UHGV virus genome: UHGV-0349718
Source of the DNA: a virus
Direction: 5' to 3' (one strand)
DNA length: 13,399 nucleotides
Under the pieces are notes generated by a model, which ran no database searches, was not told the DNA's origin, and was given only the letters and a program-made list of their open reading frames with translations. Of this stretch, positions 4,487 to 10,771 are shown in pieces. The position numbers were made by a program, and so were the translations under genes. Position 1 is the stretch's first letter. The number at the start of each line of letters is the position of its first letter.

Positions 4487-4677
4487 GGGCGCACCTCCGC
4501 CGTAGTGATGTATTTAACCGGACTGCCTTTCATTGCGATGGTTTCACACATCTCCGCTGCTTTACGTTCCGCTGTTTTCCTAGATTTATAGCGGCGGTGC
4601 CAGACAGACGTATCCGTGCGAACTGATACATCGTTTCTGTATTCAGTTGTGGAAATAATAATTTCGTAACTAATCAT
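4483..4677 (-). CDS. Hypothetical phage protein (64 aa)
   Basis: ATG at 4677 overlaps the stop of the 220-aa gene (ATGA), with GGAGGT 6 nt upstream; the track ORF begins 5 codons earlier at 4692. Confidence 0.5.
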   Translation of the reverse strand: MISYEIIISTTEYRNDVSVRTDTSVWHRRYKSRKTAERKAAEMCETIAMKGSPVKYITTAEVRP

Positions 4678-5336
4678 GGACGCACCTCCCATTGATTACG
4701 GCGGAAAGCGGTGTGATTCAGGTTAGTTTCTGCCTCATGGAATGCTTCAATACAGCTCTCGTAGTACCGCATTGTGCGGAGACTTAACCCAAGCTGAAGC
4801 ATCATCAAACCATCAAGGGTGATGTAATAACCATGCAGAGAATCACCATAGATGTGATAAGTACCCGGTATGAAATTGCAGGTAAAAAATTCGCGCGAGC
4901 AGTTCAGATACTCGATTTTGTCGACGATGTTCTGGTGCATGCGCTTGAAATGACAGGCAACATGCAGAGAGAAAATAACGGCCTTGCCGTTGACGACTTC
5001 GATTTTGAGAAATGGGGAAGTTGGGACAGTAGCCATGATGGCAGCCTCCTTGAGCAGTGAAAAACTTCCACCACCGGAGGTTCCAAGCTCGCTGGTGGCG
5101 GACTGAACAGGGTTGGAACTACCGGCGCTCAAGGAAACCGGCGAGCCTTTCGGCTCCCCTGCCCAGCCCACCATAATTCTGGCGTGCGCGAGCATGGACG
5201 ATAAAAAAGACGCTGGCGCGTCGTATATCGCCTCGAGCAATTCCGGGGTTCCAATCCCGGCACCCGCTTTATAAGGTGCGGAGACAGTGTAACGTCCCGA
5301 AATTGCAGAATCAATATTTAGGCTTGAAACATTCAT
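4674..5336 (-). CDS. Hypothetical phage protein (220 aa) with a Ser/Gly-rich low-complexity linker
   Basis: Long ORF heading the overlapping chain; weak SD; central stretch SAGSSNPVQSATSELGTSGGGS. No recognisable domain. Confidence 0.5.
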   Translation of the reverse strand: MNVSSLNIDSAISGRYTVSAPYKAGAGIGTPELLEAIYDAPASFLSSMLAHARIMVGWAGEPKGSPVSLSAGSSNPVQSATSELGTSGGGSFSLLKEAAIMATVPTSPFLKIEVVNGKAVIFSLHVACHFKRMHQNIVDKIEYLNCSREFFTCNFIPGTYHIYGDSLHGYYITLDGLMMLQLGLSLRTMRYYESCIEAFHEAETNLNHTAFRRNQWEVRP

Positions 5337-6857: not shown

Positions 6858-6976
6858 AATCGCATCTCCTATTGACGACATATTATCAATAGGTAAATCG
6901 ATATTCAACGTTAAACCTAGAAGTTTCATCGGAAAGCCGATAAACTGCCCAACATAGAGAGGAGAGGAAGATCACA
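6858..6976. promoter_or_regulatory. Divergent cI-cro control region (OR-like): operator palindrome and PR-like promoter
   Basis: Palindrome CCTATTGA-N10-TCAATAGG (6868-6893). On the minus strand, -35 TTGAAT (6908-6903), 17-nt spacer, -10 TAATAT (6885-6880), overlapping the palindrome. Strong SD GGAGAGGAAG precedes the cI ATG at 6977. Confidence 0.6.
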
Positions 6977-7669
6977 ATGACATTTTCAGAACGACTTGAT
7001 TTAGCTATGCGCAACGCCAAATTTACGCAAGGCAGGCTGGCCAAAGAAGTAGGTATGGCCCAGTCAAGCGTCAATCAATTACTTAACAAAGCCAACGGTT
7101 CCAGGAAAACAGTTGAAATAGCAAAAGTTTTGGGCGTTAACCCGGAATGGCTCGCATCTGGTGTCGGTCCAATGGAAATCGAGACCTCTGCAGACTCACA
7201 CCAAATACGTAACATTTCAGAAGACAGGATTACTGATTCGTATGTCGTGGATGTTTTAGACATCAGATACAGTTGCGGGCCTGGTAGTTATAACTCTGAT
7301 TTTCCAGACATTGTCAGATCTATAGCGATAGAACCAGGATACGCATCAAGAGTTTTTGGCGGCAGACCAGCATCAGCAATCAAAGCAATAAACGCCCACG
7401 GCGACAGCATGAAAGGCACAATAAACCCTGAGGACTTGGTGTTTGTTGACGTATCAGTTCGCTCATTTAATGGCGATGGTATATACGCTTTTACATACTC
7501 TGGAACATCGCACATCAAAAGGCTTCAAAAAATCAAAGACACCCTAACAGTGATCTCAGACAATCCAGCTTACAAAGATTGGGCTATCGAACAAGATGAC
7601 TTCGAGCAACTTCACATTGACGGAAAAGTAATCGTAAGTTGGCCTATGACGCTACACCGTTTCGCATAA
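6977..7669 (+). CDS. cI: CI-type prophage repressor (N-terminal HTH, C-terminal LexA-like S24 autopeptidase domain)
   Basis: N-terminal HTH (...FTQGRLAKEVGMAQSSVNQLL...); C-terminal Ser in AHGDSMKG and Lys in SHIKRL, the S24 catalytic dyad pattern; divergent to cro. Confidence 0.9.
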   Translation: MTFSERLDLAMRNAKFTQGRLAKEVGMAQSSVNQLLNKANGSRKTVEIAKVLGVNPEWLASGVGPMEIETSADSHQIRNISEDRITDSYVVDVLDIRYSCGPGSYNSDFPDIVRSIAIEPGYASRVFGGRPASAIKAINAHGDSMKGTINPEDLVFVDVSVRSFNGDGIYAFTYSGTSHIKRLQKIKDTLTVISDNPAYKDWAIEQDDFEQLHIDGKVIVSWPMTLHRFA

Positions 7670-7736: not shown

Positions 7737-7765
7737 TTGACAACACAAATAGGTAAACCTATTAT
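7737..7765 (+). promoter_or_regulatory. Near-consensus sigma70 promoter (PL-like) with operator-like palindrome in the spacer
   Basis: -35 TTGACA (7737-7742), 17-nt spacer, -10 TATTAT (7760-7765); spacer contains AATAGG-taaa-CCTATT (7748-7763), sharing AATAGGTAAA with the cI-cro operator region. Confidence 0.65.
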
Positions 7766-7805: not shown

Positions 7806-8225
7806 ATGAGGAAAATGTCATCGTATATGGGGTTACCAACAAATCAACACGATGCTCTTGAGAATATTCAACTCTTAGTAGGGGCTGGAGCACTACTATA
7901 TAGCAGCAATAACCCTGAGTTAATTGAACTTGCCAGCTCCATCCTGGCTGTAACTCAAAAATATAGCCTCACCGCGTCGCGTTCATGCAAACAAAATTTA
8001 GCCATTAATTCACAGAATCGGATTCGCACCCAACGCGAAGCCTGCGGCTTAACAACCGCCGAACTCGCCAGGCTGCTCGATCTCGATGAAGAAATCATCA
8101 TCCAGTGGGAAAGCGGAGAGTATGAACCAACTATCAGTATGCTTATCCCACTGGCAAATGTTCTTGGTTGCGACCCGATGTGGCTGTTAACCGGTAAACC
8201 AACAGCTGGAGATACTTGCGCATGA
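7806..8225 (+). CDS. HTH-XRE family DNA-binding protein (139 aa; C-terminal HTH, N-terminal region unrecognised)
   Basis: C-terminal ...IRTQREACGLTTAELARLLDLDEEIIIQWESGEYEPTISMLIPLANVLGCDPMWLLTG is a classic XRE-type HTH. First gene after the PL-like promoter; alternative start at ATG 7815. Confidence 0.65.
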   Translation: MRKMSSYMGLPTNQHDALENIQLLVGAGALLYSSNNPELIELASSILAVTQKYSLTASRSCKQNLAINSQNRIRTQREACGLTTAELARLLDLDEEIIIQWESGEYEPTISMLIPLANVLGCDPMWLLTGKPTAGDTCA

Positions 8226-8587
8226 AAAAGTTCGAAAACATAACTGTTCTCCATGTTGATAACTTTGATTATACAAACCAGGAATTTCTCCCGGAGGTTG
8301 TAAAGGCAATAGATGTAGCCGATATAGTGATTAGAGGAAAGAGAATTGTCAAAAACAGGCTCGCATGCACTTCAGGAGCAATGACAGAAACAACCCCACA
8401 GCAAGATGATTATGAAGGCATTTGTCTGGAACCGGACTCATTTGCGGTAAATGTTTATCATTTATTGCATGCAACACAGGTATTACATATGTCCAGTAAT
8501 AACGAAATAAAAACACTCGGCAGCGAAATTCTGAATTTTGCATGTGAATATGCAAAAGCTGCTGCCGAAAAAGTACTAGCGCAATAA
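8222..8587 (+). CDS. Hypothetical protein (121 aa), translationally coupled to the HTH-XRE gene
   Basis: ATG at 8222 overlaps the upstream TGA (ATGA); the track ORF begins 2 codons earlier at a TTG. No recognisable domain. Confidence 0.55.
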   Translation: MKKFENITVLHVDNFDYTNQEFLPEVVKAIDVADIVIRGKRIVKNRLACTSGAMTETTPQQDDYEGICLEPDSFAVNVYHLLHATQVLHMSSNNEIKTLGSEILNFACEYAKAAAEKVLAQ

Positions 8588-8785
8588 CAACAAACATGCT
8601 CTGAACGTTTATTACGGTTTTATCGCCGGGGATTGTTACAACCTTTATTCATAGAGGGAACTCAGTTATGACTTTCCTGAAAAATAAGGCATCGTATAAA
8701 ACTGCCTGCCTCATTGCACAACATGGAGATTCTTATCTTCATATAGCCAACCTGTATTTGCGCAAGGCTTATGGGAGATAAAATA

Positions 8786-9004
8786 ATGGAGACATCAGCA
8801 CGAAATAAAATGCAGAATGAGCCTGAGCAGGGGGGGGTAATACACGAAAAAGTAAGAGTGTTGCTAACCATTGAAAATGGGAAAGTAATTTACTCAAAAC
8901 ATCTGTTGGATAATGAATTCGTTGGCTGCATGGATACATTTCTGTGGATGGCAAAAAGAGCTGGCTACACGATTATTCCACCAGCAAAGGAGCAAACATT
9001 ATGA
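8786..9004 (+). CDS. Hypothetical protein (72 aa)
   Basis: ATG at 8786 with GGGAGA 7 nt upstream (alternative ATG at 8771); its stop overlaps the next start (ATGA). Confidence 0.45.
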   Translation: METSARNKMQNEPEQGGVIHEKVRVLLTIENGKVIYSKHLLDNEFVGCMDTFLWMAKRAGYTIIPPAKEQTL

Positions 9005-9582
9005 ATCATTCAGAGTTCCGACCAGAAGTTACGCCACATGGCATAAAAATTGGCAATACAACCATTAATTTTGTTGATGCCGTACAGCGACTTAATGATG
9101 GTGAATACGACAATCCATACTGGCACGGCTTAAGAATCATGCAATGTATTGCTGAAGCCGATGATGCCGGATTCCTGGGAAGATTTTCAGTCGATATGAA
9201 GGTTGCTCAATGGCGCTGGCTGTATGTGGCAACGTTTATCAGTGAAGAGGAAAACAAGAACGGCACCATTGATATCCCTAACGATAACGGAACCACAGAT
9301 CACGCAGTTATTTATAAGGGAAAGCATGGTTGTATAAGTATATACCCGGGGCCACTTCGCATTGCCCTGCAAAACCATGTCGAATGGGGATTTATTGAAA
9401 AATATGGCGAAACTGAAGGCATGGGGCGAGTTCTGTTTCTCTATCAAAAAATGCTCATCGCAGATCCTGATAATGGTTTCATTCTCTCTGCTATGGGGCG
9501 CGAAGGGCTTGAACTCCTTCTGGATGAAATAATTAACGACCTGAATACTCATGGTATGCCAGAAGCGCCAGTGACACATTAA
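9001..9582 (+). CDS. Hypothetical protein (193 aa)
   Basis: ATG at 9001 with AAGGAG 8 nt upstream, overlapping the upstream stop; the track ORF start at 8944 is discounted. No recognisable domain. Confidence 0.6.
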   Translation: MNHSEFRPEVTPHGIKIGNTTINFVDAVQRLNDGEYDNPYWHGLRIMQCIAEADDAGFLGRFSVDMKVAQWRWLYVATFISEEENKNGTIDIPNDNGTTDHAVIYKGKHGCISIYPGPLRIALQNHVEWGFIEKYGETEGMGRVLFLYQKMLIADPDNGFILSAMGREGLELLLDEIINDLNTHGMPEAPVTH

Positions 9583-9589
9583 ATATTAA

Positions 9590-9614
9590 GAAGAAAATAA
9601 TTCTTCCGTTTTTT
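9590..9614 (+). terminator. Weak AT-rich hairpin plus T-run (possible terminator)
   Basis: GAAGAA-aataa-TTCTTC (9590-9606) followed by cg-TTTTTT (9609-9614); low-GC stem. Confidence 0.35.
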
Positions 9615-9627
9615 ACTAACCGTTTAT

Positions 9628-9735
9628 ATGAAAAGCAACCGTGAATTAAACAGAGTAAAACTGATTTTAATCCTTGCCGCAGTGCTGACACTAACTGAAA
9701 TCATTATTATCTTTATTGCGCTGTCAGTCGGTTAA
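9628..9735 (+). CDS. Small hydrophobic single-pass membrane peptide (35 aa), candidate
   Basis: ATG...TAA ORF MKSNRELNRVKLILILAAVLTLTEIIIIFIALSVG; no clear SD; below the ORF-track length cutoff. Confidence 0.3.
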   Translation: MKSNRELNRVKLILILAAVLTLTEIIIIFIALSVG

Positions 9736-9758
9736 AAATATCGGGATACCACAGACCA

Positions 9759-9947
9759 ATGAGACTGTATTTCACAATAGTAATTTTACTGGCAATTATC
9801 GCATGCATTTACGGATTACTCGTTCCGTTCCTTATATCCATGAAGGATACGATAGCAGTTATTTCTGGCTTTGCACTGGCGTTTCTGACCCCGCCCTGCA
9901 TTTATGCCATTTACAAGGGTCTTTCTTTCACTAAGGATAAAAGATGA
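9759..9947 (+). CDS. Small inner-membrane protein (62 aa, two predicted TM helices)
   Basis: Two hydrophobic segments (YFTIVILLAIIACIYGLLVPFLI and IAVISGFALAFLTPPCIYAIY); its stop overlaps the ATG of the SPFH gene (ATGA). Confidence 0.55.
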   Translation: MRLYFTIVILLAIIACIYGLLVPFLISMKDTIAVISGFALAFLTPPCIYAIYKGLSFTKDKR

Positions 9948-10771
9948 AAAAAATTATTTTTGCTTTAGCCATTATTCTGCCGACCATTAGCCTTGTCGGG
10001 TGCGATCGCGTTGAACCAGGTAATGTTGGCATCAAGGTAAATAAACTGGGCAACGACAAAGGCGTCGGTGAGGTGGTCGGTGTTGGTCGCTACTGGACTG
10101 GCTGGAATACTGAGGTTTACATCTTCCCTACCTTCAAGCAAATGAAGACCTACGATGAACCATTCAGTTTCCAGATGAGTGACGGTACAACCATCGGCTA
10201 TCACATCGGCGTGGCCTACAAAGTTGATCCATCCAAAGTTACCACGGTGTTTCAGACTTACCGCAAAGGCGTGGATGACATTACCGACACCGACCTGCGC
10301 CAGAAGATCGCCGACGCACTCAACCGACTGGCCAGCAAAATGACCACCGACAAATTTATCGACGGCGGCAAGTCTGAACTGCTGGATGCTGCTCTTAAAG
10401 ACATTCAGGCAGAAATGACACCCATCGGTATTCAGGTAATGAGCCTCTCATATGTAGGTAAACCGGAGTACCCACCAACCGTTATCGACAGCATTAATGC
10501 CAAAGTCACGGCAAACCAGAAAACCCTGCAACGCGAGCAGGAAGTAAAACAGCGCGAAGCGGAAGCCAACATGCTGCGCGCGGAAGCTGCCGGACAGGCT
10601 GATGCGATTCGCACAAAAGCCCAGGCCGAAGCCGATGCTATTCGTTTACGCGGTGAAGCTCTGCGCCAGAACCCTGGAGTTATGGAACTGGAAGCCATCA
10701 ATAAATGGAACGGCACACTGCCGCAATACATGACCAGCGGCGCCAATACGCCATTTATCCAGGTTAAATAA
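9944..10771 (+). CDS. SPFH/band-7 (HflK/C-, flotillin-like) domain lipoprotein
   Basis: Signal peptide with lipobox LVGC (Cys20); SPFH-like core (NVGIKVN...GRYWTGWNTEVYIFPTFKQ...); Ala/Glu/Gln-rich coiled-coil tail (QREQEVKQREAEANMLRAEAAGQADAIRTKAQAEADAIRLRGEALRQ). Confidence 0.75.
   Translation: MKKIIFALAIILPTISLVGCDRVEPGNVGIKVNKLGNDKGVGEVVGVGRYWTGWNTEVYIFPTFKQMKTYDEPFSFQMSDGTTIGYHIGVAYKVDPSKVTTVFQTYRKGVDDITDTDLRQKIADALNRLASKMTTDKFIDGGKSELLDAALKDIQAEMTPIGIQVMSLSYVGKPEYPPTVIDSINAKVTANQKTLQREQEVKQREAEANMLRAEAAGQADAIRTKAQAEADAIRLRGEALRQNPGVMELEAINKWNGTLPQYMTSGANTPFIQVK

Follow-up and report, generated by a model that had tools for sequence, protein, structure and literature searches.

A three-gene cassette in the early-left region of a phiP27-like prophage resembles a short form of a modular gene array of enterobacterial prophages

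Results

Gene content of the immunity and early-left region

The DNA analysed here (the window, 13.4 kb in its whole length) comprises the immunity and early region of a phiP27-like lambdoid prophage. Between positions 8601 and 9800 it shares 93.7% DNA identity with the Stx2e phage phiP27. The prophage that carries the genes described below is a phiP27-like prophage of E. coli integrated at yecE; related prophages adjoin yecE, yecN and cmoA. Most of the segment is present in about 80 of 5426 complete E. coli genomes, in every case on the chromosome. The arm contains the following features:

6977-7669, + strand: CI-like repressor, 230 aa
7692-7710: terminator-like hairpin with T8, 3' of cI, where the cI transcript would end
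7737-7765, + strand: probable PL-type promoter TTGACA-17-TATTAT, 11/12 consensus match, -10 hexamer at 7760-7765
7806-8225, + strand: HTH protein ('CII-like'), 139 aa
8216-8587, + strand: 123-aa protein
8668-8781, + strand: gene m, 37 aa, basic (MTFLKNKASYKTACLIAQHGDSYLHIANLYLRKAYGR, pI 9.8), Shine-Dalgarno GAGGGA at 8654-8659 with 8-nt spacing
8786-9004, + strand: gene A, 72 aa, PHROG 340, ATG 8786-8788, stop TGA 9002-9004
8987-9004, + strand: A/B junction, Shine-Dalgarno AAGGAG at 8987-8992 (8-nt spacing), then ATGA at 9001-9004 with the start of B over the stop of A
9001-9582, + strand: gene B, 193 aa, PHROG 1515, ATG 9001-9003, stop TAA 9580-9582
9590-9614, + strand: weak hairpin GAAGAA-AAUAA-UUCUUC followed by CG and U6, stem 9590-9595/9601-9606, U6 at 9609-9614

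3' of these genes, the + strand continues with a 62-aa membrane protein, an SPFH lipoprotein, DUF5406, DUF4222, excisionase and integrase, in this order; the Cro/YdaS-like gene and the early-right genes lie on the - strand. At related loci, the homologous CI-like repressors carry a Peptidase_S24 domain. The GC content of m, A and B (0.39-0.45) is the same as that of the neighbouring genes, without any shift, and Rfam and tRNA scans of 8588-9760 found nothing.

PHROG 4587 is matched both by the N-terminal ~60 residues of the 139-aa HTH protein (7806-8010) and by the C-terminal ~65 residues of the 123-aa protein (8390-8587). These two regions align weakly to each other (hhalign P 7e-4) and have an 'SSNN-E...L-S-IL' motif in common, so that the two ATGA-coupled neighbours may contain a duplicated domain. 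Elsewhere, the window holds several Rha/Bro/ASH-type genes together with a C4/isrK antisense RNA system. Rfam matches above the gathering score to the C4 antisense RNA (84 bits) and the isrK Hfq-binding RNA (63 bits) lie at 5091-5178 (-) and 5203-5279 (-), with a weaker match to the c4-a1b1 target at 5240-5292. The C4/isrK matches fall inside a mechanically called 220-aa ORF (4674-5336), and the region is probably a c4-ant antisense control of the P1/P7 type, located 5' of anti-repressor genes.

A conserved cassette of three coupled genes

The original prediction placed an overlapping pair of 72-aa and 193-aa genes, coupled by ATGA, at 8786-9582. The coordinates proved correct, and each gene has its own Shine-Dalgarno sequence, that of A being GGGAG at 8773-7 (spacing 8 nt). 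The identical pair with the identical overlap has been annotated by RefSeq/PGAP in an E. coli chromosome of 94.5% identity. The junction AAGGAGCAAACATTATGAA is kept in 52 related loci and replaced by a 5-nt gap in 30 divergent ones. When 72 distinct related sequences were aligned, the variable columns were distributed over the three codon positions as 37/29/48 in A and 94/58/153 in B, and the flanking non-coding DNA was flat. With dN/dS values of 0.32 for A and 0.16-0.20 for B, both are real and conserved genes under purifying selection. An opposite-strand ORF at 9187-9579, considered less credible from the beginning, was rejected as a gene: stop codons break it in seven close relatives and in every divergent one, and it is not conserved.

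Orthologues of A and B are known from phage phiP27 as L07 and L06 (P27p07/P27p06), with copies in Stx1 and Stx2 E. coli prophages, all of them described as 'hypothetical protein'. Their location is the same too, with the immunity region on one side and xis/int on the other, at the yecE attachment site. The phiP27 record differs in its gene starts, as L06 begins at an upstream GTG (212 aa) and L07 at an upstream ATG, which results in a 61-nt overlap; m is not annotated. The corresponding GTG at 8944 is ruled out as start of B because the close homologues are all 190-193 aa long with an aligned Met1. Likewise, the ATG at 8771 is not kept as start of A: a divergent group reads TAC GGG (ACG) there, and 8786 is for this reason taken as the conserved start. 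Conservation thus supports the ATGA-coupled versions (72-aa or 62-aa plus 193-aa) over the starts in the phiP27 record, which are wrong and can be corrected.

The ~200-nt 'gap' 5' of A contains a further gene, m. Its stop codon lies 4 nt 5' of the ATG of A, and its last codons contain the Shine-Dalgarno sequence of A. All 72 distinct aligned relatives have m intact, with variable columns of 15/7/24 by codon position. Its dN is 0.17 with saturated dS, and the changes between the window and a group of 74% identity are mostly synonymous. Using tblastn, we found m in nearly all of ~175 related loci, always as the first gene of the array described below. It is also present on thousands of enterobacterial contigs, where some pipelines call it, only as 'hypothetical protein'; it is uncalled in the PGAP/RefSeq records, the phiP27 record and most of the metagenomic gene calls examined. 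The annotation is therefore corrected by a 37-aa gene that these records leave out. The protein has no Pfam or PHROG match and no hydrophobic segment, and a relation to A, B or C (a family introduced below) was rejected by hhalign comparison. While the coupling of A and B stands, the pair as the whole unit does not, since a conserved m precedes A and since A and B also occur independently. The unit is a cassette of three genes, m-A-B, in one direction with junctions of 4 nt and -4 nt.

Putative promoter and operator, and the downstream hairpin

Within the arm, only the PL-type site at 7737-7765 is strongly promoter-like. Both the spacer and the -10 region of this site overlap with the palindrome AATAGGTAAACCTATT at 7748-7763, of which a 13/16 copy is found in the cro-cI intergenic region (6888-6903; 0.17 matches expected by chance); the assignment as an operator is based on these two sites only. 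The - strand of 6872-6907 reads, by eye, TTGAAT-17-TAATAT with the same half-site and is likely PR. A heteroimmune relative (L006) has the same layout with different repeats. The genes 3' of the promoter either overlap by ATGA or are only a few nucleotides apart. No sigma-70-like site was found in 8588-8667, and the 80-nt spacer before m is poorly conserved. The nearest promoter-like site, a 9/12 match at 8381-8410, is internal to the upstream gene, and the number of sites is that expected from shuffled sequences; weak internal promoters of the operon are possible. Probably, the operon with m-A-B is driven from 7737-7765. We read this layout as the signature of a CI-repressed early-left operon and not of a moron, in which case expression of m-A-B in the repressed lysogen would be unlikely.

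The hairpin and T-run that had been described after B are present. The stem of 6 bp contains two G-C pairs (-4.3 kcal/mol, z = -1.0 against shuffles) and was not called in a terminator scan. It is not strictly maintained and is absent where another gene directly follows the stop codon of B. At most, the hairpin is a leaky terminator; it lies at a mosaic boundary and belongs to the next module. Neither an own terminator nor a distinct base composition, both hallmarks of a moron, was found for m-A-B, as the hairpin is uncalled and the GC content is that of the neighbours.

Protein A corresponds to the C-terminal module of Bro/Rha-type proteins

Protein A aligns to PHROG 340 with residues 6-71 on profile positions 9-74 of 85 (E 1.8e-24), and all 34 tested family members match as well. 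In total, 228 homologues are detectable across the Enterobacteriaceae, mostly of about 70 aa. A is soluble (pI 6.7) and consists of a variable, disordered N-terminus of ~20 residues and a core ββα domain (residues ~25-64); no RHH, PHD, AbrB or HTH fold was found. Of the 34 family members, 30 additionally hit PHROG 4792, labelled 'anti-repressor', in its C-terminal region (best E 6.8e-6). In this Bro/Rha-type C-terminal domain (also PHROG 2379 and 25059), the A core 25-64 aligns to positions ~200-239 of 268. In contrast to the Bro/Rha-type proteins, A is the domain alone, without a Bro-N, Rha or KilA-N N-terminal part. Based on these matches, we regard A as a stand-alone version of a ~45-residue ββα module that is also found at the C-terminal end of Bro/Rha-type proteins. 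The 'anti-repressor' label of PHROG 4792 is an annotation and not a tested function of its C-terminal domain. An A-like domain was found neither in the window's own Rha/Bro/ASH proteins nor in the Citrobacter Bro-N genes next to B.

Protein B is a conserved α/β protein without an informative relative

Residues 1-193 of B align to positions 12-203 of the 203 in PHROG 1515 (E 9.2e-92). The family is of modest size: clustering at 50% identity yields 128 clusters out of 1.84 billion proteins, and almost all members are stand-alone proteins of 190-220 aa. B is acidic (pI 4.9, net charge -13), cytoplasmic and soluble, and its structure is predicted with good scores (pLDDT 88.2, pTM 0.83) as a two-lobed α/β protein. 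The stretch from residue 122 to 184 shares homology with family C, in the C-terminal half of the latter (hhalign probability 82%, P 1.1e-5). The tail G-M-P-E-x-P-V-x-H is conserved throughout the family (G-[MIL]-P-x-x-P-V-x-H), its terminal His to at least 90%, and is modelled as disordered with low pLDDT. Such a combination of conservation and predicted disorder is typical of a docking motif. Besides, the conserved polar residues D37, R72, W73, R120, E128, Y148 and H193 could form an active site. Since the fold has no informative relative, it is possible that B is an unrecognised enzyme.

A profile search of the PDB returned no informative relative of B, and Pfam gave no match for 51 diverse homologues and a Klebsiella-type homologue. 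PF17345, flagged for two B homologues in a precomputed table, could not be recovered even when E values of up to 10 were allowed. Longer B-like proteins (P0103, P0191, P0139, P0135) were considered as domain fusions; they contain no Pfam domains and look like read-through or chimeric calls. Comparison of B with the 123-aa protein or the N-terminus of the HTH protein of the window gave hhalign P ≥ 0.3, and a relation was discarded. In six Klebsiella phage records (MF695815, MK416014, MN166823, MK422455, MK433579, MK416019), homologues of about 48% identity are labelled '2-polyprenylphenol hydrolase/hydroxylase related flavodoxin oxidoreductase'. We rejected this flavodoxin oxidoreductase or '2-polyprenylphenol hydroxylase' identity, as B has no FAD- or NAD-binding or other Pfam domain, and the label is probably a propagated misannotation. 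A weak resemblance to the toxin-binding domain of Xre/MbcA/ParS-type antitoxins (DUF2384; PDB 8qnl_A, 6fkg_D, 8gug_C) scores below the level of homology. In contrast to this domain, B has no Pfam match, HTH domain or RES/ART toxin neighbour, and it is twice as large.

Searches for known functions

Searches of A, B and their neighbours against Pfam, NCBIfam and PADLOC gave no meaningful match for A or B. Together with the PDB profile search, the Pfam and NCBIfam results bear out the first impression that no recognisable catalytic or DNA-binding domain is present. In PADLOC-DB v2, B had no match and A only chance-level ones (E 0.018-0.023). Among the neighbours, the 123-aa, 62-aa, SPFH and DUF5406 proteins had none, and the 139-aa protein matched a generic HTH only. 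Neither a transmembrane segment nor a nuclease or NTPase feature was found in m, A or B. The same holds true for the Pfam ParE, RelE and RES domains, and the ParE-like protein P of the longer arrays (see below) is absent from the window. Homology to ordinary early-left functions, which would have spoken against the original prediction, was not found either: when profiles of m, A and B were compared by hmmsearch with a set of 12 proteins from the early-left region of lambda (kil, cIII, ral, gam, ea10, ea8.5, ea22, orf28, orf60a, orf61, orf63, lambdap35), no score exceeded 3.4 bits. A literature search on locus tags, accession numbers and PHROG ids found no paper, and nothing relevant on the phiP27 early-left genes.

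m-A-B within a modular array

Prophages of Citrobacter, Klebsiella and Salmonella contain a longer array, m-C-A-P-X-B, which is always colinear and in which any slot may be empty. Here, C denotes a family of 115-120 aa, P a 72-aa ParE-like protein (PF24732, E 8e-19) and X a protein of 140-146 aa. In these prophages, P starts with GTG and overlaps A by ~29 nt; X often comes next and is ATGA-coupled to the B homologue. The architectures were counted in ~175 related loci, a sample biased by the way in which the loci were fetched:

m-A-B: 86
m-C-A-P: 42
m-C-A-P-X-B: 14
m-C-A-P-X: 11
m-C-P-X-B: 5
m-C-P-X: 5
minor variants: the rest

Among 80 loci with the C family, 53 have A without B and seven B without A; P occurs without A in 11 loci. 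A and B are hence not an obligate pair, and their independent occurrence argues against any fixed-pair model. The E. coli form m-A-B looks like the long array minus C, P and X. The right edge of the unit is exactly the stop codon of B (9582/9583), where three unrelated downstream contexts start: the hairpin with the membrane/SPFH module, a gene starting MSNQNKINVFQ..., and a gene starting MTVIEYIQENPDCSRED..., whose product has, judged by eye, a winged-helix look. The left edge is placed near 8610 because the upstream gene differs between the groups.

Discussion

Besides the delimitation of the cassette, our data allow a proposal on how its products might act. Small host-modulating and anti-defence binding proteins are carried by lambdoid early-left operons (lambda Gam, Kil, CIII and Ral; P22 Abc). 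The m-A-B cassette occupies the same niche as the accessory proteins of the lambdoid PL operon (lambda Gam, Kil, CIII, Ral, Ea8.5/Ea10/Ea22; P22 Abc and Ea proteins), namely between immunity and xis/int in the direction of cI. It resembles them in its putatively operator-controlled promoter, in the tight translational coupling of its genes, in the small size and solubility of the products and in being gained and lost in a mosaic manner. The sequences are not similar to those of the lambda early-left proteins, so that the likeness concerns a possible mode of action and not family membership; exo, bet and gam genes are absent from this phage arm.

Our favoured explanation, to which we give somewhat less than an even chance, is that m, A and B are accessory proteins of the early lytic phase whose action consists in binding to proteins of the host or the phage. 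Transcription would start at the operator-bearing promoter 7737-7765 of a CI-repressed early-left operon, from which we infer that the proteins would be made after induction or infection and not in the repressed lysogen. Action by binding to other proteins appears most likely because all three are small and soluble and have no catalytic signatures; the term 'binding protein' is thus an argument from the absence of catalytic motifs. B would be the likely effector, which would dock on a host (or phage) protein to modulate it. This would be the same class of action as that of lambda Gam, Kil, CIII and Ral, with homology to none of them. A would probably serve as a binding or adaptor module, and m would be the 37-aa basic peptide that always heads the array.

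A and B belong to catalogued families of unknown function and are already known as hypothetical proteins from many genomes, and the cassette is a better-delimited case of the mosaic accessory genes of lambdoid early-left operons. New are the 37-aa head gene, the colinear array of six slots, the links of A to the C-terminus of PHROG 4792 and of the B C-terminus to family C, as well as a confidently modelled B without a relative in the PDB. What appeared as a pair is the short form of a modular array common to prophages of Escherichia, Citrobacter, Klebsiella and Salmonella, including Stx1 and Stx2 phages, and represents a well delimited piece of phage dark matter. The confident model without a PDB relative makes B a reasonable candidate for anti-defence or host-takeover screens. 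In a bolder version, which we consider rather unlikely, B founds a structurally new family of phage early effectors whose tail docks on a protein of the host, such as a factor in defence or housekeeping. In that case, m-C-A-P-X-B would be a hitherto overlooked island for counter-defence or host takeover in the early-left operon of enterobacterial lambdoid phages, with m as the common head component. If B indeed inhibits a host defence or essential function, Shiga-toxin phages would carry a new effector family.

Among the other explanations, the best surviving one, with perhaps one chance in five in its favour, is that A, possibly with m and B, regulates the phage itself. These proteins would adjust the choice between lysis and lysogeny, or would behave like anti-repressors or co-regulators towards phage repressors, and would not act on host targets. 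The match of 30 out of 34 A-family members to the C-terminal region of PHROG 4792 is in line with this idea, as are the position of the cassette after two regulator-like genes (the HTH 'CII-like' protein and the 123-aa protein) and the several Rha/Bro/ASH-type genes and C4/isrK system in the window. However, the name of PHROG 4792 is, for that C-terminal domain, an annotation only, and A, B and m have no DNA-binding domain. Moreover, the Peptidase_S24 domain in the homologous repressors of related loci means that induction need not depend on an anti-repressor.

The original prediction favoured a cargo for defence or exclusion, that is, genes expressed in the lysogen that protect the host from other phages. 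The position between immunity and xis/int often holds accessory cargo of prophages, the cassette moves among prophages in a mosaic fashion, B is followed by a weak hairpin and T-run, and the downstream membrane proteins and higher-GC SPFH lipoprotein look like morons. Nevertheless, the search results do not fit this picture: no PADLOC model matches, effector-type domains, membrane segments and features of nucleases or NTPases are missing, no own promoter was found, and the GC content is unshifted. The genes are instead translationally coupled into an operon with an operator-overlapped promoter, with only the weak hairpin after B, and A and B are found apart from each other, whereas defence systems consist of fixed gene sets. 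Taken together, we consider such a role improbable, clearly behind phage-internal regulation.

Least probable of all, with odds that we rate as slim, is a toxin-antitoxin-like or addiction module with A as the small antitoxin-type protein and B (or the ParE-like P in longer arrays) as the toxic partner. In its favour, the gene next to A in arrays other than the E. coli m-A-B form is nearly always the overlapping 72-aa ParE-like one (PF24732), the ATGA overlap of A and B is typical of such pairs, and B weakly resembles DUF2384. Against it, the window lacks a toxin domain, the fold of A is not of the RHH, PHD, AbrB or HTH type, and the partners are not obligate: 11 loci have P but no A, seven have B but no A, and over 50 have A but no B.

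The SPFH/Band-7 lipoprotein gene 3' of m-A-B (9944-10771) has a GC content of 0.50-0.54, compared to 0.39-0.47 in the rest of the arm. Together with two small upstream membrane ORFs it appears a better candidate for a moron or an exclusion function than m-A-B. One of these, an unannotated ORF of 35 aa (MKSNRELNRVKLILILAAVLTLTEIIIIFIALSVG; 9628-9735, + strand), lies between the hairpin and the gene of the 62-aa membrane protein and encodes one strongly hydrophobic segment. It has no clear Shine-Dalgarno sequence and is open in 55 of 56 distinct relatives with the same downstream module, with conservative substitutions and a codon-position variation of 10/4/10. Possibly, it is a small membrane protein that works together with the products of the 62-aa and SPFH genes.
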